Source: Candidatus Latescibacterota bacterium (GTDB lineage: Bacteria; Latescibacterota; UBA2968; UBA8231). From it: DNA of 64,000 nt. Below are positions 1,727 through 9,030 of the stretch, in pieces. Each line of letters begins with the position of its first letter. Positions within the stretch are counted from its first letter, which is position 1. The translations under genes and the position numbers were made by a program. The stretch lies in the NCBI GenBank assembly GCA_965215195.1, contig CBDCDC010000002.1, positions 4,177,693 through 4,241,692 on the forward strand, in the 5' to 3' direction. The notes under the pieces are model-generated. The model was given only the letters and a program-made list of their open reading frames with translations. It did no database searches and was not told the origin of the DNA.

Positions 1727-3334
1727 ATGACCGACCCAATCCTGCTCACCGACGAGCAGATGCGCGAGTTTATCGTCAATGGCTATCTGGTTTTTGAGCC
1801 GACCGTGCCCGCAGGGACGCACGAAGCGTGCTATGAGCGGCTCAACCAGATCATCGACTCGGAGCCTAATCCGGGCAATAACATCCTGCCGCGCGTACCC
1901 GCCATGCGCCACGTGCTCAACTCGCCCGAGGTGCGCGGCGCACTCATCAGCGTCTTAGGCCCGAACTTTTTGGAGCATCCGCACCGCTACTGCCATCCCC
2001 TCAAGCCAGTGGAGGAACCCGTGCCCGCGGCCGAGGCCGAAGAGAGGCTGCGCCGCAACTGCCATCAGGACGGGTACACGCCCATGGGCCATCCGCGCCA
2101 GCACTATCTGCGCTATGCGCGAATCATGTACTATCCGCAGGATTCGCCGGTCGAGTTGGGGCCGACGCACGTGATCCCGGGCACCCAGTTCAATCGCGGA
2201 CTGACCGACGAGGATCGGGCGCGCGCCTTGCCATTGGCCGGCCGGGCCGGCACGGTGTCCCTGACGCACTTTGACGTGGGCCACGCGGCCGGCGTCAGCC
2301 TGCTACCGGTGCATCGGCACATGATCAAGTTCATCTACATGCGAGCCGCCGAGCCGACGGCCCCGACCTGGGACTGCAAAAGCATGCACTGGCAGAAGCC
2401 CCACTGGAGTGAGGTTCCCTACGATCTGGAACTGGCTTGGGCGCACACTTGGGACTGGCTATGCGGCAAGCGGGATCGCTACGATAGCTGCCCACAGGCC
2501 ACTGGAGATGTGGCGGCACTCATCGCCCAGCTCGATCTAGACGTGGATTTAGCGCAGCGGCTTGCGGCGGCACAGCGATTGGCCGGATTCGGCGTTGATG
2601 CGGCTGCAGCCGTGCCAGTGCTCGTGGAGTGCTTGGGCACCGATCACCAAGCCATGCGCACGGCAGCGACCTACGCGCTAGGCGCGATCGGCGAGCCCGC
2701 GGTCGCGTCGCTGGCCAAAGCCTTGCGCACCGCAGGTCGCGAGGCCGACCAACACGAGGCCCCGCCCGTTTGGAGCGAGGGAGCGACTAACATGGAGGAC
2801 GCGGCCCAAGCACTGGCGGCCGTTGGCGAGCCGGCGGTTGAAGCGCTCTGTGCGCTGTTGGACGACGAAAGCGAGTGGACTCAAGTCAACGCCGCCTTTG
2901 CCCTCGGCGAAATGGATTCGCACGCGGAGGCAGCAGTCCCGGCGCTGACGCGGACCCTTGAAGAGGGCTCGCATCGCTTGGTGCGCACGGCGCTCGTCGC
3001 GCTGGGCAATATCGCGCAAGGCGTACCAGTAGAAGCCTTGGGGCGCATGCTCTCGGCCGATCACCCAAATTGGCAGGAGGAAGCTGGCCGCCGCTGGGTG
3101 CCCCGCGACCAAGTGCGGACCAACGCCGCAATAGCCTGCGCCCAGCTCGGCCCGGCCGCCGCTCCGTTAGAAGCCCAGCTTTTCAGGGCACTCGACGACC
3201 CCTGCGGCCACGTAGGCGCATTCGCGCTCAGTGCCCTGCAGCAGATTGGCTCGCCCACAGCCACGCAGGCCGCGATGGATTATCTCTATTCGCAGCGCTG
3301 GGACGCCGCTATTGACGGCGAGCGGCAGTTTTGA
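1727..3334 (+). CDS. PhyH-family Fe(II)/2-oxoglutarate dioxygenase fused to C-terminal HEAT (PBS-lyase type) repeats
   Basis: N-terminus LLTDEQMREFIVNGYLVFEP and an HxD motif (NCHQDGY) are typical of phytanoyl-CoA dioxygenase-like proteins. The C-terminal half carries repeated AVPxLxxxLxxxxxxxRxxAxxALGxIG units. SD site AAAGGAG lies upstream of the ATG. Confidence 0.7.
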   Translation: MTDPILLTDEQMREFIVNGYLVFEPTVPAGTHEACYERLNQIIDSEPNPGNNILPRVPAMRHVLNSPEVRGALISVLGPNFLEHPHRYCHPLKPVEEPVPAAEAEERLRRNCHQDGYTPMGHPRQHYLRYARIMYYPQDSPVELGPTHVIPGTQFNRGLTDEDRARALPLAGRAGTVSLTHFDVGHAAGVSLLPVHRHMIKFIYMRAAEPTAPTWDCKSMHWQKPHWSEVPYDLELAWAHTWDWLCGKRDRYDSCPQATGDVAALIAQLDLDVDLAQRLAAAQRLAGFGVDAAAAVPVLVECLGTDHQAMRTAATYALGAIGEPAVASLAKALRTAGREADQHEAPPVWSEGATNMEDAAQALAAVGEPAVEALCALLDDESEWTQVNAAFALGEMDSHAEAAVPALTRTLEEGSHRLVRTALVALGNIAQGVPVEALGRMLSADHPNWQEEAGRRWVPRDQVRTNAAIACAQLGPAAAPLEAQLFRALDDPCGHVGAFALSALQQIGSPTATQAAMDYLYSQRWDAAIDGERQF

Positions 3335-3430
3335 GGGGATGAGTTTGAGTGCATCGGCAATGGTCTTCTTCCCTAGAGAACGGTCGATAAAGAAAACAAG
3401 TGGATCAGGCTGCTCGGGTGTATAACTCAC
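3335..3430 (-). pseudogene. Truncated PIN-like (DUF5615-type) toxin remnant downstream of the DUF433 gene
   Basis: From a GTG overlapping the DUF433 3' end, the frame reads ..PLVFFIDRSLGKKTIADALKLIP. This resembles the N-terminal strand-helix of DUF5615/Mut7-C-like PIN proteins that pair with DUF433. After about 30 codons the frame runs antisense into the PhyH gene, so only the N-terminus survives. Confidence 0.3.
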
Positions 3431-4163
3431 AGCGGATCGCTTCTTCGATATCGAGCGTCGGGCGATCATAGTCGTCCGCTAATGCACTGATTGCCTCCCC
3501 GGCCTTGTAGCGTTCGGCAATAATAGCCGTAGGAATCCCAGTGCCTGCGAGCACCGGGCGACCAAAAGATATGCGAGGATCAATGACAATTGCCTTGGGT
3601 TCTTCCATGAGTTGTTGGCTTGGGCGCTTGCGCGTGAAGGGGTATAGCCTCCGGGCATAACCAGCCGAATCCCTATCAATGCGCCGCAGATGCGCCTGCA
3701 ACAGGTTCCTAAGTACCAGTTGTCCAGCTTGAGAGACATTTATGAGTTGACCGTATTCTTCGACAAAGAGGTCCAAGCCGTCGGTTTCGATCTTGTGGTA
3801 TGCGAGAGGGTGATCGGACGTTAGTTCTTCTTTGATGAAATCGATAGCAATCCTAGCCTTGTGCAGCGATATGCAATGGTCGCGGCGAATGGCATCGAGC
3901 ATGTGGATTTCGACCAGATTGATAAAGGATAGAAGGTTCTGGCTATCGTCTGGTAGGTCGATCACAGGCTGGAAGAACTGGTCTCCTCCGCTAGTAGGAT
4001 ATTTGCGGCCTCGCACCCAAGAGCGAAGCGTAGTCACGGGAATGCGCAGGTAGTGGGCAGCCTCGGGAAAGCTGTAACAGGGCATTGCGCGTATGTCATC
4101 TGTTGCGATAGATCTCATGCCATAAGGTCCTTTAGCCGAGAGACGAATGCGCTGATAGACCAT
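3405..4163 (-). CDS. DUF433-domain protein with an N-terminal MerR-like HTH (antitoxin-like)
   Basis: C-terminus IDPRISFGRPVLAGTGIPTAIIAERYKAGEAISALADDYDRPTLDIEEAI matches the DUF433 signature. The N-terminus has the HTH-like YSFPEAAHYLRIPVTTLRSWVR. The start could instead be the internal MRSIATDD. Confidence 0.7.
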   Translation of the reverse strand: MVYQRIRLSAKGPYGMRSIATDDIRAMPCYSFPEAAHYLRIPVTTLRSWVRGRKYPTSGGDQFFQPVIDLPDDSQNLLSFINLVEIHMLDAIRRDHCISLHKARIAIDFIKEELTSDHPLAYHKIETDGLDLFVEEYGQLINVSQAGQLVLRNLLQAHLRRIDRDSAGYARRLYPFTRKRPSQQLMEEPKAIVIDPRISFGRPVLAGTGIPTAIIAERYKAGEAISALADDYDRPTLDIEEAIRCELYTRAA

Positions 4164-4172
4164 TAGTTTGCA

Positions 4173-5078
4173 CTAATGGTCTCTAGGCATTACGCCCTCT
4201 TTCATAGGTTTAAGTGTTCCATCACGCAAGTACATAGCGTATCTCTGGAATTGCCACTCTAGGGAGAAAATTTGTTCTGCCCAATCTCTCAGAGGCTGAC
4301 TGCACGCATTATTGCGAGCAAGAGCCTGTAGGGTTGGAATTTGTTCACCAATTTGTTCAGCTATTTCGTTATAAAAACTGCTTCTTGCTTGTTCTGGAAA
4401 GTGACTACGCTCACGAATACGAAACTGAACTGGATATTTTTGCTTGATTATATTGACCCAATACAGCAGTTTTCGGTTGTTTACGACGTATGGATCCACC
4501 CCTATGAAGCTAACATGTTGGGTTGACAACACACCGTTGGGCACTGTACAGCTAATCTCTGGATCTTGAGTCTTTGTCTTTTGTCTGCCAAATTCCTCAG
4601 CCAACTGATCTCGGAACTTGATATAAGTGCTTTTAGGAGTGCCAGAGTTGCTTGAATACTTGAAGAGACGATTAATATCTTCAAGTGTCTTGAGTGCTTC
4701 ACGTTCGCGGTTGAAGCCTTTCGCTCCTGCTGACCAGAGACATACTGCAACATCGGAGGCTTCCAATAGAGCCGAAGGACGTAGTTGAAATAGTATGGGC
4801 CCGTAGGGATTTGGAACACTTTTTGATCCCTTCGCAAAAGAGCTACCAAAGTCTGACAAGTTTACGAAAACTTTATCCCACATATTGTTTTCACGGTCAA
4901 TAGCGTCGGTCTGAAATGGCGTAAATTCTAATTGTCTACTTTCAAGCAAAGCACGTGAGGGAATTCCTCCAAGACTAATATACGACTCAAAGTCAATTAA
5001 TTGACAGGCATGATAGAGGAATACTTGACGCTCTTCAAATAAATCCACCAAATCTTGAATGTCGTTACCGGTTATCAT
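4173..5078 (-). CDS. Hypothetical protein (301 aa); N-terminal half possibly ADP-ribosyltransferase-like
   Basis: Long ORF in the AT-rich islet, 9 nt upstream of the DUF433 gene. Three segments resemble the H-Y-E ART layout: VFLYHACQ, NPYGPILFQL, and PEISCTV...HVSFIGVD. No family could be assigned by eye. Confidence 0.55.
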   Translation of the reverse strand: MITGNDIQDLVDLFEERQVFLYHACQLIDFESYISLGGIPSRALLESRQLEFTPFQTDAIDRENNMWDKVFVNLSDFGSSFAKGSKSVPNPYGPILFQLRPSALLEASDVAVCLWSAGAKGFNREREALKTLEDINRLFKYSSNSGTPKSTYIKFRDQLAEEFGRQKTKTQDPEISCTVPNGVLSTQHVSFIGVDPYVVNNRKLLYWVNIIKQKYPVQFRIRERSHFPEQARSSFYNEIAEQIGEQIPTLQALARNNACSQPLRDWAEQIFSLEWQFQRYAMYLRDGTLKPMKEGVMPRDH

Positions 5079-5098
5079 GAGATTAGCCTTTCCAACAG

Positions 5099-6037
5099 TT
5101 AAAACAGATTAAGTTGTTTGCTTTCAGGGCCTTTTGTGGGAACTTTATCGCCTATGTCCTGTTCAAGACGAGTTGCTTCCTCTTTTAGAAGCTCAACAAA
5201 TATAGGTTGCGCTTTTGCCCAAATTGCCTCGGCTTCGTCAAATGAAAGTCCTACTTTACCTAGTCTCCACTCTACCTCTTTATCCCACCATCGGGAGGGT
5301 TTGTGTTTTTTTGTGACATGACCGCTTTCACAATAGAAACTAATCCAATTCAGTTGCCTCCAAGAAAATCGAGTCTCCTTTGCAACTTTGTGAAGAGCGG
5401 CTTTTCCTTGAGGGGTGTGTTTATCTAATGCAACCCAAAACGGAAAATTCATTTCACTATTAGTATTAGGATCTGTGTACAGCTCGGGTAATCCATCCCT
5501 AATAGCTAAATATGCTGTTGCTTGTATAAAGGCCCTATCCCAAGGCCATCCGCCCTTTCGATAAACTTTTTCAGCCTGTTCGACGAGTCTAGTTTCAGTT
5601 TCGCGCGTATTTGAACATTGAGAAATTGCCCATTCCCAATATGTGTTAGCATCTGTAATCGCCTCACAAACCCGTTGAATGGTATCATCTTCTTCACAGC
5701 CTGTCAGTACTGACCTATCGCCTTCTGAAAGTGCATATGCCAGAGATCCGAGTCCAGCTGCGTCTTTGAACTTTACAGAGTTGGCAAGTTCGCTGAGAAT
5801 CTCTACCATTGCCACCTGTTCCTCGTGCTTCTTAGGTGGCCTCCATTTAACCATGAGAGGCCAGCATTCTTCAGCGATTATCACACCGATTCGTTGCCTG
5901 AGCCACCTGATGTCCCCTATTTCATAAAGGTGATTGACAACCTTAGTAACAAGGTCAGAGTTACCACGGCGCACTGCTTTTTGAAGTAGAGAACGACAAC
6001 GTTGATCCGTATTCGAATTAACCTTGCGCATGTACAT
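5099..6037 (-). CDS. Hypothetical helical protein (312 aa) with an MgsA/RarA C-terminal-lid-like segment
   Basis: Start chosen at MYMRKV, which has GAAGGA 7 nt upstream; the ORF could extend to 6229. SLLQKAVRRGNSDLVTKVV..WLRQRIGVIIAEECW parallels the RarA lid motif HKSxRGSDxDAALYW...RRLxxxAxEDIG. No AAA+ domain is present. Confidence 0.5.
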   Translation of the reverse strand: MYMRKVNSNTDQRCRSLLQKAVRRGNSDLVTKVVNHLYEIGDIRWLRQRIGVIIAEECWPLMVKWRPPKKHEEQVAMVEILSELANSVKFKDAAGLGSLAYALSEGDRSVLTGCEEDDTIQRVCEAITDANTYWEWAISQCSNTRETETRLVEQAEKVYRKGGWPWDRAFIQATAYLAIRDGLPELYTDPNTNSEMNFPFWVALDKHTPQGKAALHKVAKETRFSWRQLNWISFYCESGHVTKKHKPSRWWDKEVEWRLGKVGLSFDEAEAIWAKAQPIFVELLKEEATRLEQDIGDKVPTKGPESKQLNLF

Positions 6038-6236
6038 CAGTTGGTCCTTCAATTGAAGTTTGATTAAGCTTGACTCTCTGTTTTTCCCAACGTTGTGCGT
6101 CTGGTCGTGATCGGTAAACGGCCAAGGAGGTGTTCTGTGTACCAACGCGTCATTGAAGATAACAACGAAACCAGCCCCGTTACAATTTGTCGAACGCAAT
6201 CCATTCCATCCTCTCTGTGGACAAAACATGGGTAAT

Positions 6237-6288
6237 GCCCATTAGATAGCGCAAGCATCGCTCAGGGCGTCTTGCGTACGCCTTGGAG
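6237..6288. repeat. Direct repeat, copy A: duplicate of the TetR gene 3' end plus its downstream 24 nt
   Basis: Hand alignment to 7540-7590 gives 48 of 51 identical positions plus one 1-nt indel. The minus strand still reads LQGVRKTP-stop. Confidence 0.85.
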
Positions 6289-6321: not shown

Positions 6322-7425
6322 TTAACGATTGGGGACTAAGGGGCTGCCTTCGGCTTTCTTGCGCTCTATTTCCGCATGGGTTTTGTATAGCTGGAGGTAG
6401 CGGTGTGCAGTCGGCGGATGCGTACCTCTAAAGTTGTTTGACGCAACGGGATTGCGTTCCGCCATGCGTCGCCAGAAGTCGGCCGCCCCCTCGGTATCAA
6501 AGCCAGCCCGGGCCATCAGATAGAGTCCAACGTAGTCGGCTTCTTGCTCAAAGGCTTGGCTAAAGGCGATTGCACCAGCCTCCATTGTGCTTTGTGTGAT
6601 GGTGCCAAAGGTCGGTACGCCCGTTACCGCCCATTCAACAGCCGCTCCCATGATTCCGCCGAGTAGAGCATTCGTTTTCTTTTTATCGACATGTCCCTCG
6701 GTGCAGTGAGCCAACTCGTGGGCGATGACCAAGGCCAATTCACTATCTGTCGCAAAATCAAGCATTCCTGCTGTTAGGACAATATTTTCACCGTCTGTAT
6801 AGGCATTAACATCTTGTCCCTCCGAATGATATACCAAGTGAGAGCAAATCGGCTCCGCCTTTATAGGGATTTCGATAATCGTATCTTTGTTTGCTGCAAC
6901 CTTGCGCTGGACCGTAAAGATCGTCGGCTCCTCTGACGCATGACGTTTAAGCAGCTTGTGAAGATTGCTTTGGTACTCAAGGTCGTATTCGTTCCAGTGG
7001 GGCCATATTGTCTTAATCGGCTCTCCCCCGATCCTCGTAATCTGGTCTCCGGGCTGAAGACCAGACTGTGCGGCTGGGGAGCCGGCTACAAGTTCCACGA
7101 CTATCGGTTGCTCCCGCAACTTCTCTATGCCATAATAGCGCAACCTCAAGAGACGATCCCAAGGCTTCATTTTCTGCGTACTCGCCGAGTCTAAGTAGCT
7201 GAATCCGAATTGGAAGCGAGTCTTTTTGCCACATAGCGCGGCGTTGGCTCGCATGATAGACGGCGCAAGGCGCGCTATTCGCTCTTGCCGCTGCATGGAC
7301 AATCGGAAGATTCTTTCCAATTGATGGAGCATTTCCTCGGTGACTTCAGAAGAAGAAAGCTCAGGGATTTTGTACCTAGGAGCACATGAGCCAAGAATAA
7401 GAAGAATCACGAATAGGGTAGGCAT
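6322..7425 (-). CDS. M48-family zinc metallopeptidase with an internal PDZ domain; lipoprotein
   Basis: HExxH (IAHELAHCTEGH) and a downstream EQEADYVGLYLMARAGFD are typical of M48. The PDZ-like segment is VELVAGSPAAQSGLQPGDQITRIGGEPI. Start set at MPTLFVILLILGSC, which carries a lipobox. Confidence 0.8.
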   Translation of the reverse strand: MPTLFVILLILGSCAPRYKIPELSSSEVTEEMLHQLERIFRLSMQRQERIARLAPSIMRANAALCGKKTRFQFGFSYLDSASTQKMKPWDRLLRLRYYGIEKLREQPIVVELVAGSPAAQSGLQPGDQITRIGGEPIKTIWPHWNEYDLEYQSNLHKLLKRHASEEPTIFTVQRKVAANKDTIIEIPIKAEPICSHLVYHSEGQDVNAYTDGENIVLTAGMLDFATDSELALVIAHELAHCTEGHVDKKKTNALLGGIMGAAVEWAVTGVPTFGTITQSTMEAGAIAFSQAFEQEADYVGLYLMARAGFDTEGAADFWRRMAERNPVASNNFRGTHPPTAHRYLQLYKTHAEIERKKAEGSPLVPNR

Positions 7426-7539
7426 ATAGAGGCACCTTTCATCCTTCTTGGTTGTGCTGCAAGTCGAGTGGGAGGCTGGTCCTCTGCGCCGCCGTGAGCC
7501 AGCGCATTTTGAGCTGCAGCGCAGTTCAAGATAGTTTTG

Positions 7540-7590
7540 GCCCATAGATAGCGCAAGCGTCGCTCAGGGCGTCTTACGCACGCCTTGGAG
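7540..7590. repeat. Direct repeat, copy B: the authentic 3' end of the TetR gene plus downstream sequence
   Basis: Covers the last 8 codons and stop of the TetR CDS and 24 nt beyond. Pairs with 6237-6288. Confidence 0.85.
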
Positions 7591-8397: not shown

Positions 8398-9030
8398 TTA
8401 TTCCTCAAGAAACACATACCGCTCCAGTCGGGCTAGTTCGTGGTCGTCGACGTATTTTCCGATTTCTCGTCTCCATTGCGCCATGCTCTTATAGGGTCGG
8501 TATTCCTCAAACTCGTGCGCCATGCGCTTGCCAACCCCTGGGATCGTGAGGAAATCCGCCTCGCTGGCGCTGTTGAGTTCGAGCGGCACGAAGACGTACT
8601 GCTCCAGTCGGGCTAGTTCGTGGTCGTCGACGTATTTTCCGATTTCTCGTCTCCATTGCGCCATGCTCTTATAGGGTCGGTATTCCTCAAACTCGTGCGC
8701 CATGCGCTTGCCAACCCCCGGCACTAGTTTCATTTCGGCGTCGCTGGCGGTGTTGAGGTTGATCGGCAGGAAGAGCTTGGCGTACAGTTCGGCTCGGACC
8801 GAGTCCGCCAAAGTCGAATCCAAATAGGCGTTGAAGGCTTCCATGCCGATAAAAGGCCGTTGCGCCACAATCCCCTCGACCAACGCCGAATCGAGTTGCG
8901 CTAGGGCCAATAGCTGTTCGCCGCCGGCTCGGTTGGGATTGAGGACTGTTTCGTTTTTTCCCACCTGCCCTTGGGCGCTGCTGCCGTAGAGACAGACGGC
9001 TAAGATCACGGCTAAAACGACTTGCTGCAT
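8398..9030 (-). CDS. Secreted helix-hairpin-helix (ComEA-like) repeat protein
   Basis: Signal peptide MQQVVLAVILAVCLYGSSAQG. Three LNxASxxxxxxxPGVG HhH-type units are present, and the last two 60-aa units are nearly identical. Confidence 0.65.
   Translation of the reverse strand: MQQVVLAVILAVCLYGSSAQGQVGKNETVLNPNRAGGEQLLALAQLDSALVEGIVAQRPFIGMEAFNAYLDSTLADSVRAELYAKLFLPINLNTASDAEMKLVPGVGKRMAHEFEEYRPYKSMAQWRREIGKYVDDHELARLEQYVFVPLELNSASEADFLTIPGVGKRMAHEFEEYRPYKSMAQWRREIGKYVDDHELARLERYVFLEE
8421..8718. repeat. Tandem in-frame duplication, period 180 bp, inside the ComEA-like gene
   Basis: 8421-8538 and 8601-8718 are identical over 118 bp by direct reading. Confidence 0.9.

Follow-up and report, generated by a model that had tools for sequence, protein, structure and literature searches.

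A horizontally acquired gene pair encoding a predicted DarT-like ADP-ribosyltransferase fold and an all-helical partner, a candidate toxin-antidote module, in a Candidatus Latescibacterota genome

Layout and base composition of the locus

The window (the whole stretch of DNA analysed, 64,000 nucleotides of a Candidatus Latescibacterota contig) contains two adjacent minus-strand genes, here termed A and B, followed on the same strand by a gene for a DUF433 protein. All three ORFs lie at the positions given in a preliminary description that was made from the sequence alone. Gene B (4173-5078, minus strand) is defined from its ORF and sequence, extends from an ATG at 5078 to a TAG at 4175-4173 and encodes 301 aa. 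Gene A (5099-6037, minus strand), defined in the same way, ends in a stop codon at 5101-5099 and can be read from an ATG at 6037, giving 312 aa. A start at 6031, giving 310 aa, is more likely, since homologues of A begin with MRK.NP.TH and the gene call on an identical contig is of 310 aa. A 376-aa ORF reaching 6229 was rejected as the true A gene, as the homologues give it no support. The spacer between A and B (5079-5098, minus strand) is of 20 nt and contains GGAAAGG, a sequence resembling a Shine-Dalgarno or ribosome-binding site; a terminator scan predicted none between the two genes. In other genomes, A and B overlap by 4 bp or are separated by a gap of up to about 200 nt. A model of the operon with a sigma-70 promoter and a terminator was discarded, the sites being no more numerous than in shuffled sequence.

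A and B together form an island of 42-47% GC in a genome with a background of about 62% GC, and are a horizontally acquired pair. No repeats flanking the A-B cassette were found. The sole strong repeat in the region brackets a neighbouring M48 gene. Neither a macrodomain nor an ATPase domain was found in A, in B or in the neighbouring genes, which bears out the earlier remark that a macrodomain is absent.

The DUF433 gene (minus strand) encodes a 252-aa protein with HTH_66 and DUF433 domains. Its first ATG, at 4163, is 9 nt from the stop codon of B, and an alternative start lies at about 4118. The preliminary description took the three genes for a single unit, and the unit could indeed be a block A-B-DUF433 in which the HTH_66+DUF433 protein would serve as antitoxin or regulator of B. 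The short distance on the same strand fits such a block, as does the retention of this arrangement in a syntenic Latescibacterota genome (locus L009), and DUF433 proteins are often annotated as antitoxin-like. However, a phmmer search of all fetched loci detected a close homologue of the 252-aa protein beside the pair only in the same genome (L001) and in L009, and in none of the other loci; moreover, the DUF433 gene has a GC content of 50-56%, compared with 42-47% for A and B. A three-gene unit is therefore considered very improbable, and the DUF433 gene was excluded from the unit for want of co-occurrence outside these two loci. Just downstream of it is a remnant, LVFFIDRSLGKK, which by eye, and without a profile match, resembles the N-terminus of a DUF5615/Mut7-C-like protein, the usual partner of DUF433. 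This suggests that the DUF433 gene belongs to a separate, decayed pair of its own.

Predicted fold and conserved residues of protein B

The AF2 model of B has a pLDDT of 94.2 and a pTM of 0.91. When it was compared with the PDB using Foldseek, the best ten matches were all ADP-ribosyltransferases, namely eight DarT entries and two of SopF, with probabilities of 0.99-1.00. The DarT matches include 8baq, 7yk3, 7omy, 7omu, 7omw, 7omv and 7omx, with E-values from 3.9e-5 to 3.6e-3. The top match is DarT1 of E. coli C7 (8baq; E 3.9e-5), with 18% identity over an alignment of 239 columns against the 208-residue DarT1, and TM scores of 0.46 on the query and 0.64 on the target; DarT2 provides the second- and third-best matches. 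DarT1 is a guanine-N2 single-stranded DNA ADP-ribosyltransferase with a NADAR antitoxin (DarTG1; E. coli C7, PDB 8baq), while DarT2/DUF4433 is a thymidine single-stranded DNA ADP-ribosyltransferase with the macrodomain antitoxin DarG (Thermus, M. tuberculosis and EPEC; PDB 7omy and 7yk3). As modelled, B thus has a DarT-like ADP-ribosyltransferase (ART) fold, closest to the DarT structures, in agreement with the guess made earlier for the 301-aa protein from short motifs.

Secondary structure, the order of elements, conservation and the Foldseek matches place the ART-like catalytic domain in approximately residues 1-200 of B (4479-5078, minus strand). Its motifs are LYHACQ in beta1, TDxxDxxN, WDKVFVNLSDFG, NPYGP and the PEISC strand, followed by the VDPY strand with D195. 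The strings singled out in the preliminary description are present in B (VFLYHACQ, residues 19-26; NPYGPILF, 90-97; PEISCTV, 173-179; SFIGVD, 190-195), and these motifs are invariant or nearly invariant columns of the B family. Conservation was assessed in 86 diverse members, with a mean column identity of only 31%. The proposed histidine, H23, is found in 86/86, as are D61, N73 and D76, while Y33 and F71 are each found in 85/86 and F81 in 84/86. The proposed glutamate, E174, is acidic in all 86 (84 Glu, two Asp), and D195 is Asp in 84 and Glu in two. The putative catalytic codons are at 5010-5012 (H23) and 4557-4559 (E174) on the minus strand. In the model, H23, Y33/F71/F81 and E174 are located on the secondary-structure elements expected for ARTs of the H-Y-E class, and the conservation of H23 and E174 inside the family is as strict as in active ARTs.

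Comparison with DarT2 reveals further likeness in beta1, where IYHITH..NL.SI...G.L of DarT2 corresponds to LYHACQ..DF.SY..LGGI of B, and in a glutamate that opens a strand and is followed some 15-20 residues on by a hydrophobic GV strand. The catalytic residues of DarT1 include Arg52 (PMC11543638), and the R52/D54 pair is not evident in B, although the invariant D61 would, judging from the spacing, be situated roughly there. B also differs from DarT1 in its extra C-terminal domain of about 100 aa. This helical extension (approximately residues 201-301; 4176-4478, minus strand), delimited from the model and the conserved columns, is predicted to contain helices at 204-213, 230-242 and 250-294, and includes a conserved R224 and the motif RY..YL..GT. 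DarT chains are of about 200-220 residues and lack an extension of this type. It is possibly a substrate- or partner-binding domain. Longer homologues of B have C-terminal extensions without a Pfam domain, with the exception of one protein that carries two HTH_40 domains.

A corresponding link was not detected in sequence profiles. DUF4433 (Pfam PF14487) has no match in the window B at E <= 1 nor in any of the 86 members at E <= 10, and B does not match the PADLOC DarT models. Alignment of the B family with 11 bona fide plasmid DarT2 proteins by hhalign gave a probability of 1.8%, and that of a shorter homologous family, B2, with the same set was negative; the set was obtained with a DarT2-like consensus that served only as bait and retrieved 82 plasmid DUF4433 genes, of which 11 were fetched and aligned. 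In these respects B differs from DarT2, as in its lack of sequence-profile similarity it differs from DarT1. Scans of A and B against Pfam, NCBIfam, PADLOC and PHROGs yielded no match for either, and in PADLOC-DB v2 there was none at E <= 1 for A, B or the DUF433 protein. A MADF match of B (E 0.0012), which fell short of the cut-off, and a RecD match of A (E 0.012; cut-off 671 bits) were dismissed as noise. Searches of PDB sequences with phmmer and with B family profiles returned only designed coiled coils (E > 0.3), and the B2 profile returned nothing. The DarT assignment therefore depends on the predicted structure. A lead in the same direction is the automatic UniRef name of the Comamonas guangdongensis member of the B family, 'DUF4433 domain-containing protein'.

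Protein A and its pairing with B

The AF2 model of A (pLDDT 90.5) is all-alpha, with 16 helices. None of its 1166 relatives has a Pfam domain, and Pfam reveals no AAA+ ATPase module, AAA hit, macrodomain or NADAR in A. The resemblance to the MgsA lid noted in the preliminary description is real but weak. It concerns the N-terminal part of A (approximately residues 10-110; 5708-6010, minus strand; motifs CRSLLQKAVRRG, IAEECWP and KFKDAAGLG), which weakly resembles the C-terminal, post-AAA+ helical domain of MgsA/RarA. The top three matches of the A family profile among PDB sequences are MgsA-family C-domains (8g28, 2qw6 and 2r9g; E 0.13-0.64, profile positions 4-55), and Foldseek gives local matches to 2r9g and 3pvs (probability 0.6-0.95, E of about 2, about 105-134 columns). 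Pfam MgsA_C matches 0/58 members of A at E <= 10, and when the A family was aligned with E. coli RarA by hhalign the probability was 1%. Thus, the A profile can be aligned over its first 50 or so residues with the beginning of the MgsA/RarA/WRNIP1 C-domain, with the motif h.S.hQKAhRRG...L...GD....RR..VI..E, but no match is individually significant, the AAA+ module is missing and about two-thirds of A (residues ~110-312, including WPWD and DKHT) have no counterpart in MgsA.

No known hydrolase fold is found among the matches of A, whether by Foldseek or by the family profile against PDB sequences. The antidote of DarTG1 is a NADAR protein, and A differs in this respect, with no Pfam NADAR match and no NADAR name among its listed fold matches. 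Invariant residues of A are D42, R49, E56, K89, K91, D92, WPWD at 164-167, DKHT at 205-208 and six further Trp. Folds like that of A are encoded in giant viruses, as stand-alone or fused domains, and one structural relative is annotated as RarA.

Relatives of B number 260, and those of A 1166, in a collection clustered at 90%, and there are 487 representatives of B at the 50% clustering level. In 28 of 36 full-length genome loci, from at least eight phyla, the gene immediately preceding B on its strand is A, and in 52/72 metagenome loci A is immediately followed by B. Homologues that are never adjacent elsewhere would have spoken against the pair in the preliminary description; instead, the A-B arrangement is conserved across phyla. 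The two proteins diverge together: across 64 pairs, the pairwise identities of A rise and fall with those of B (r = 0.87, Mantel p = 0.001). With mean pairwise identities of 47% for A and 44% for B, A is as conserved as B. Taking the relatives, the motif conservation and the GC island together, the two-gene observation is far beyond chance.

Each gene also occurs without the other. B lacks A in 7/36 genome loci, which indicates that B is not always lethal in the absence of A. Orphan A genes are present in 9/72 metagenome loci, and A genes with no ART are found beside genes for helicases, HD and AAA proteins. This occurrence of A without any ART suggests that it has a function of its own. A further 11 A genes in the metagenome loci are paired instead with B2, which is homologous to B (hhalign probability 99.2%, E 2.7e-19) and lies upstream of A, the order seen in darT-darG. 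In the hhalign alignment, the B2 position corresponding to E174 of B is Met or His. Either the alignment of B and B2 is unreliable at this position or the glutamate is not universally needed.

The B2 residues raise the possibility that B is ART-like without being a transferase (an NAD+ or ADP-ribose sensor, a NADase or a pseudoenzyme), in which case the effector proper would be A, or both proteins would form an obligate complex acting on nucleic acids. The many invariant polar and aromatic residues of A, its ART-less copies beside helicase, HD and AAA genes and the A-like folds in giant viruses are consistent with this. However, H23 and E174 are strictly conserved among the members of the B family, and the closest folds are those of active DarT enzymes. 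In addition, decay affects the two genes unequally: of 82 pairs, about seven have a split or truncated B and none a disrupted A. That B is preferentially lost while A is kept agrees with B being the harmful partner. A non-transferase role for B is accordingly regarded as quite improbable.

Genomic neighbourhood and proposed role

The distribution of A-B across phyla is patchy. Genes adjoining B homologues include those for a dGTPase (three loci), the DRT reverse transcriptase RT_UG34, a ThsB-like TIR protein/PDC-S66, PD-T4-5 and McrBC, of which dGTPase, DRT, ThsB/PDC-S66 and PD-T4-5 are PADLOC matches among the neighbours in other genomes. One further locus (L007) has SLFN_AlbA_2, UvrD and a STAND-like gene as neighbours. 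The defence-island context whose presence had been left for checking is thus found in several loci. No copies of A or B were found in IMG/VR viral contigs or in plasmids.

In Poribacteria, the pair lies between atpG and atpD in the F1Fo ATP synthase operon of at least 13 distinct genomes or contigs, and these B proteins have about 51-76% identity to the window B. Such stable embedding is unusual for a selfish module. It could indicate long vertical retention and co-transcription with housekeeping genes, as would be expected if the pair were a housekeeping or regulatory NAD+-dependent modification system. B would then reversibly ADP-ribosylate a cellular target (a protein, a nucleic acid or a small molecule) and A would act as reader, eraser or specificity factor, in physiological control like that of DraT/DraG or the control of growth by DarTG in M. 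tuberculosis. The conservation of A to the same degree as B, its occurrence on its own and the failure to find phage or plasmid copies would also suit such a system. Against it are the patchy distribution, the atypical GC content of the pair in the window genome, the known defence genes that neighbour several non-poribacterial loci and the preferential decay of B, which is frameshifted in two of the atp-operon copies themselves (L025 and L034). The same poribacterial operons carry other inserted, selfish-looking genes (a methyltransferase, Uma2 and an Asp protease), which suggests a hotspot for insertions and not a functional connection. A regulatory system of this kind is considered improbable.

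The favoured reading, held with slightly more confidence than doubt, is that A and B constitute a mobile module in which, as in DarTG, a toxin is paired with an antidote, the latter being unrelated to the known ones. We infer the enzymatic activity of B, its target and toxicity, and its neutralisation by A and the manner of this, as follows. B would be an NAD+-dependent ADP-ribosyltransferase of the H-Y-E class, in which NAD+ would be bound by His23, on the first strand, together with Tyr33, Phe71 or Phe81 as the aromatic residue, and Glu174, which opens the fifth core strand, would act as the catalyst of transfer. By analogy with DarT1 and DarT2, the target would most likely be a base in single-stranded DNA, or possibly RNA. 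The modification could stall replication and arrest growth, and so be of use in abortive-infection defence or as an addiction function. A would be made first, from the shared transcript, and would keep B harmless. It might do so as an enzyme that removes the modification, as macrodomain DarG and NADAR do, or as an oligomeric antitoxin of type II that binds and blocks B. The former is slightly preferred because A is as conserved as B and rich in invariant polar and aromatic residues.

Like type II/IV toxin-antitoxin systems, the putative module consists of two small genes in the same orientation that overlap by 4 bp or lie a short distance apart, with the putative antidote first. It also resembles them in its horizontal spread, its location in defence or toxin-antitoxin islands, the existence of orphan antidotes and the greater tendency of the putative toxin to decay. 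It differs in that A is large (about 310 aa), as conserved as the putative toxin and without a recognisable DNA-binding antitoxin domain. With DarTG1 it has in common two genes for an ART toxin and a largely helical antidote that is not a macrodomain, and the defence-island ecology (PMC11543638, PMC11825919). Unlike DarTG1, A-B has the partner gene first, and phage-borne orphan copies were not found in IMG/VR. Nor does it correspond to DarTG2, since there is no macrodomain partner and A lies upstream. Of the 11 plasmid DarT2 genes, by contrast, 10 are followed immediately by a macrodomain gene; the eleventh (L137) appears frameshifted and lacks one.

DarT enzymes pair with different reversing hydrolases, either macrodomain or NADAR (PMC11543638). 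An A protein that reverses the modification would be another class of ADP-ribosyl hydrolase, new in its structure, while one that acts by binding alone would represent a new antitoxin fold derived from an AAA+ collar domain. In either case, A is the more interesting half of the pair. A broader proposal is that A belongs to a new superfamily of enzymes that free nucleic acids of ADP-ribose or of a related adduct derived from NAD. Such enzymes would be built on an MgsA_C-like scaffold unrelated to macrodomains, ARH and NADAR, would act as antidotes to both B and B2 and would stand alone in some bacteria, with the fold also in giant viruses. This is put forward tentatively, and is doubtful.

A search of the literature on DarT-like and DarT3 families, MgsA-type antitoxins and new DarT-linked hydrolases found no description of the A-B pair, which looks like an undescribed toxin-antidote or anti-phage module with an A protein unlike any known antidote. 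To our knowledge, no transferases other than those of the DarT type ADP-ribosylate DNA bases. Work on these enzymes concerns their roles as toxins, in phage defence and, in M. tuberculosis, in growth regulation, and recently also their use in genome editing (PMC13368585). The B family, with hundreds of members that have a predicted DarT-like fold but are missed by Pfam, NCBIfam and PADLOC profiles, would widen this class, and may bring new base or sequence specificity. Members are encoded by the cultured strains Pseudomonas endophytica, P. zeae, P. yamanorum, Comamonas guangdongensis and Psychroflexus gondwanensis, and the hypothesis is therefore directly testable.

Fold and predicted active site of B

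The B gene (4173-5078, minus strand) is an ORF of 301 aa. Its AlphaFold2 model, built from a 58-sequence alignment, has a pLDDT of 94.2 and a pTM of 0.91. Comparison of this model with the PDB in Foldseek reveals ADP-ribosyltransferases (ARTs) in all of the best ten matches, after which the scores collapse. The best match is 8baq, E. coli C7 DarT1 with NAD+ (E 3.9e-5, 239 aligned columns; TM 0.64, normalised on the 208-residue target). The other DarT structures are 7yk3 (M. tuberculosis), 7omy/7omw/7omv/7omx (Thermus) and 7omu (Thermosipho DarTG), and the ten also include the arginine ART SopF (7dn8, 7dn9). In the model, the order of elements fits an ART core: a first strand, LYHAC, bearing His23; a loop-helix, TDxxDxxN; a strand, KVFVN; a short helix, DFGxxFA; NPYGP, then a strand; PEISC at the start of the strand with Glu174; and a hairpin partner strand with VDPY at its end. 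Unlike DarT, B has about 100 more residues, which are helical and lack a DarT counterpart.

In a set of 86 B representatives, with a mean column identity of only 31%, His23, Asp61, Asn73 and Asp76 are each present in all 86, Tyr33 and Phe71 in 85 and Phe81 in 84. Position 174 is Glu in 84 and Asp in two, and position 195 is Asp in 84 and Glu in two. This is the pattern to be expected of an active enzyme, and it agrees with the His and Glu residues picked out in the preliminary description, whose quoted motif strings are all present where it placed them. Functional residues of DarT1 are F18, R35, N48, D49, R52, D54, S63, M71, F72, N104 and E152 (PMC11543638). Judged by spacing, possible counterparts of the DarT1 residues R35, N48-D49, F72 and E152 are R42, T57-D58, F81 and E174 in B, and the catalytic R52 would map near the invariant D61 of B.

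The Pfam DUF4433 profile matches none of the 86 B members even at E <= 10, and the PADLOC DarT models do not match B. Eleven genuine DUF4433 genes from plasmids were aligned as a DarT2 control; a macrodomain gene follows 10 of these, and the eleventh (L137), apparently frameshifted, is without one. Profile-profile comparison of the B family with this control gives a probability of 1.8%. One B member, from Comamonas guangdongensis, carries the automatic UniRef name 'DUF4433 domain-containing protein'. As the link to DarT is structural only and the sequence profiles are negative, B is best described, from its model, as a new family, outside DUF4433, whose ART fold resembles that of DarT. The predicted fold is very probably a true ART fold, and this putative transferase family is undetected by current DarT profiles.

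Four B homologues (P0373, P0257, P0298 and P0272) carry 100-250 extra C-terminal residues. One extended homologue has two HTH_40 domains; two others appear by eye to have in common a TPR-like region and, after it, a conserved C-terminal part, and neither of these two extensions matches Pfam.

Conservation of the A-B pair

In the window, A (5099-6037, minus strand; stop codon TAA at 5101-5099, ATG at 6037) is separated from B by 20 nt, and a GGAAAGG ribosome-binding-like site precedes B. Because A homologues start MRK.NP.TH and the gene call on an identical public contig is 310 aa, the real start codon of A is probably at 6031. Nine nt after its stop, B is followed by a gene that encodes 252 aa when read from its first ATG (3405-4163, minus strand), with HTH_66 and DUF433 domains by profile. 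GC content is 42-47% over A and B (about 4150-6250), against about 62% for the genome, and intermediate (50-56%) in the DUF433 gene. A scan for sigma-70 promoters and terminators gave sites no more numerous than in shuffled sequence and placed no terminator in the A-B spacer.

A is directly upstream of B in all eight loci from exact-protein look-ups, where the spacing varies from a 4-bp overlap to about 85 nt, and in 28 of 36 full-length cases in an HMM search of six-frame ORFs from genome-scan loci. A metagenome search from A gave 72 loci, each with enough downstream sequence to judge: a full B is directly downstream of A in 52, no ART gene adjoins A in nine, and in 11 a shorter gene, B2, is directly upstream. 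B2 proteins (about 217-230 aa) are homologous to B (hhalign probability 99.2%, E 2.7e-19) and have no match in Pfam or PDB sequences. Their motifs are LYHANS, GGLASR, QT.Q.TD..D..GIW.DIFLD.VDIH.R, N.YGPVLF and LD[DE]P, with a C-terminal R.C..C.C cluster. Since A is tied to two ART-like families that are related to each other, with a different gene order for each, there is strong evidence of a functional link between A and B/B2. Across loci with both genes, pairwise identity among A proteins correlates with that among B proteins (r = 0.87, Mantel p = 0.001, 64 pairs).

In the hhalign alignment, B2 has Met or His at the Glu174 column of B, and Asp195 of B aligns with an invariant Asp. The missing Glu in B2 and the enzyme-like look of A suggest an alternative, considered quite improbable, in which B is a non-catalytic sensor or an NADase and A is the effector. 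B2 lies upstream of a divergent A in L093, L097, L100, L105, L107, L109, L111, L121, L122 and L123, and locus L126 encodes an apparent B2-A fusion.

The preliminary description had joined the DUF433 gene to the pair. Among the loci analysed, a close homologue of its product adjoins the pair only in the window's own genome (L001) and in L009, a syntenic Latescibacterota chromosome with A and B about 85-88% identical. The core of the earlier reading is supported, the extension to a three-gene unit is hardly credible, and the conserved unit is the A-B pair without the DUF433 gene. The usual partners of DUF433 proteins are DUF5615/Mut7-C-type PIN-like toxins. Just past the DUF433 gene, a 100-aa ORF (3167-3469, minus strand), which starts ...LVFFIDRSLGKKTIADAL, resembles by eye the N-terminus of such toxins, matches no profile and runs into the 3' end of a convergent HEAT/PhyH gene (1727-3334). 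This ORF may be what remains, after truncation, of a toxin gene that belonged with the DUF433 gene.

A 53-nt direct repeat (6236-6288 and 7538-7590, 89% identical, with only these two copies in the window) flanks an M48-peptidase/PDZ gene (6322-7545), which is missing from the otherwise syntenic L009, where a TetR gene runs directly to A. As the M48 gene is bracketed by the repeat, one copy lies just upstream of A and may be part of its promoter or leader region. At 8398-9030 (minus strand), a 210-aa HHH_3-type protein has a near-exact internal duplication of about 65 residues, with the string …PGVGKRMAHEFEEYRPYKSMAQWRREIGKYVDDHELARLE.YVF… occurring twice; the same is seen in L009.

Nature of A and proposed mechanism

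The AlphaFold2 model of A (pLDDT 90.5) has 16 helices and no strands, and no PDB entry matches it at full length. In Foldseek, no matches are both recurrent and locally good except those to the C-terminal domain of MgsA/RarA-type ATPases (2r9g, 3pvs), which cover about 105-134 columns with probability 0.6-0.95 and E about 2. The best three PDB sequences for the A-family profile are likewise MgsA-family C-domains (8g28, 2qw6 and 2r9g, E 0.13-0.64), all aligning profile positions 4-55 with the domain start. Pfam MgsA_C does not match A members, and hhalign comparison with E. coli RarA is negative. The resemblance to an MgsA lid proposed earlier is thus real, reproducible by structure and profile, and covers only about the first third of A; the evidence is consistent but weak, and homology is unproven. 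A has no ATPase signature, and none of macrodomain, NADAR or ARH type. It has many invariant polar and aromatic residues, among them D42, W45, R49, E56, C58, K89, K91, D92, D205, H207 and T208, with a WPWD motif (164-167) and several more Trp. A is as conserved as B (mean pairwise identity 47% and 44%, respectively).

When the A model is compared with predicted viral structures (BFVD), uncharacterised proteins of giant viruses match its fold over the full length (Pithovirus LCPAC202, Hyperionvirus, Cedratvirus, Pandoravirus, Megaviridae and Orpheovirus; E 1e-4 to 4e-2, TM about 0.45-0.55). One is annotated RarA, and some are domains in proteins of 620-730 aa.

From the gene anatomy, fold, conservation and comparative genomics, which are established, we infer each biochemical step of a possible mechanism. 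B would be an NAD+-using ART with a DarT-like active site of His23, an aromatic residue and Glu174; by analogy, its target could be a nucleic-acid base and its activity could cause growth arrest. A, translated first from a shared message, would be the antidote. It might reverse the adduct enzymatically, like DarG for DarT2 and NADAR for DarT1, or, as an oligomer, sequester B, a mode in keeping with a collar-domain-like N-terminus. Reversal is slightly favoured because A is conserved, has invariant polar and aromatic residues and occurs independently; that A is a new class of hydrolase is a tentative and rather doubtful proposal. The toxin-antidote or defence reading as a whole is considered somewhat probable, and the remaining probability, beyond the specific alternatives, falls to a misleading fold prediction or an unforeseen explanation. 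A DarTG-like system, an ART toxin with a cognate antidote, is of a kind already known. A matches no described antidote or hydrolase, and no paper describing the pair was found in the literature searched, coverage of which was incomplete.

Distribution, decay and neighbourhoods

In a 90%-clustered protein collection, B has 260 relatives and A 1166; all names shown are 'hypothetical protein', and none has a precomputed Pfam domain. An exhaustive profile search gave 487 representatives of B after clustering at 50%, and 226 of these match at E <= 1e-30. Searches of A and B against Pfam, NCBIfam, PADLOC, PHROGs and PDB sequences gave no meaningful match. When one genome was scanned for each species, 38 loci emerged, many in Poribacteria and others in Latescibacterota, Planctomycetota, Chloroflexota, Cyanobacteria, Acidobacteriota, Pseudomonadota (Pseudomonas endophytica, Comamonas guangdongensis) and Bacteroidota (Psychroflexus gondwanensis). 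A search for copies on plasmids or viral contigs found none.

Of 82 two-gene loci, about seven (L025, L034, L040, L050, L053, L064 and L073) have a split or truncated B that is not at a contig end, and none has a disrupted A. Assembly errors should strike both genes alike, so this asymmetry fits B as the costly partner, subject to preferential decay. Defence genes neighbouring B homologues include dGTPase (three loci), DRT RT_UG34, ThsB-like TIR (PDC-S66), PD-T4-5 and McrBC; SLFN_AlbA_2, UvrD and a STAND-like gene are further neighbours. The dGTPase genes (PADLOC E 1e-68 to 1e-76) are no more than about 1-2 kb from B, and their three hosts are unrelated: C. guangdongensis (L042), P. endophytica (L043) and a cyanobacterium (L029). 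In L042 and L043, the dGTPase is accompanied by a 199-266-aa protein without a Pfam match.

Of 36 genome loci, seven have B without A. Three planctomycete loci (L037, L039 and L041; Sedimentisphaerales, Pirellulales) have, in place of A, two other genes ahead of B. One encodes a multi-pass membrane protein of about 205-260 aa and the other a conserved 88-aa protein with the pattern …LKEMYVEYN.ACDRLVS…GGLPRLRRAY.GRN; together they may form an alternative set of partners for B. Orphan A genes without an ART gene (L068, L120; L070, L077, L080; L091) occur in three contexts, with neighbours named by reading their translations alone: immediately after a 1328-aa helicase-like gene; with a T7-like single-subunit RNA polymerase look-alike (by eye) and MoxR-like AAA and VWA genes; and between HD phosphohydrolase-like and AAA/CYTH-like genes.

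In at least 13 distinct poribacterial genomes or contigs (L010, L011, L013, L015, L016, L019-L023, L025, L034, L047 and L078; also L002, L005/L006), the pair is embedded in the operon for the F1Fo ATP synthase, with atpG (gamma) on one side and atpD (beta) on the other, and B ends within a few tens of nt of atpD. As poribacterial B proteins are about 51 to 76% identical to that of the window, the insertion looks old and stably inherited. Such a stable position would suit a physiological, non-conflict modification system, which is nevertheless thought unlikely. Other small insertions in the same operons are an N6/N4 methyltransferase with a 188-aa ORF, Uma2, an Asp protease-like gene and DJC28_CD.
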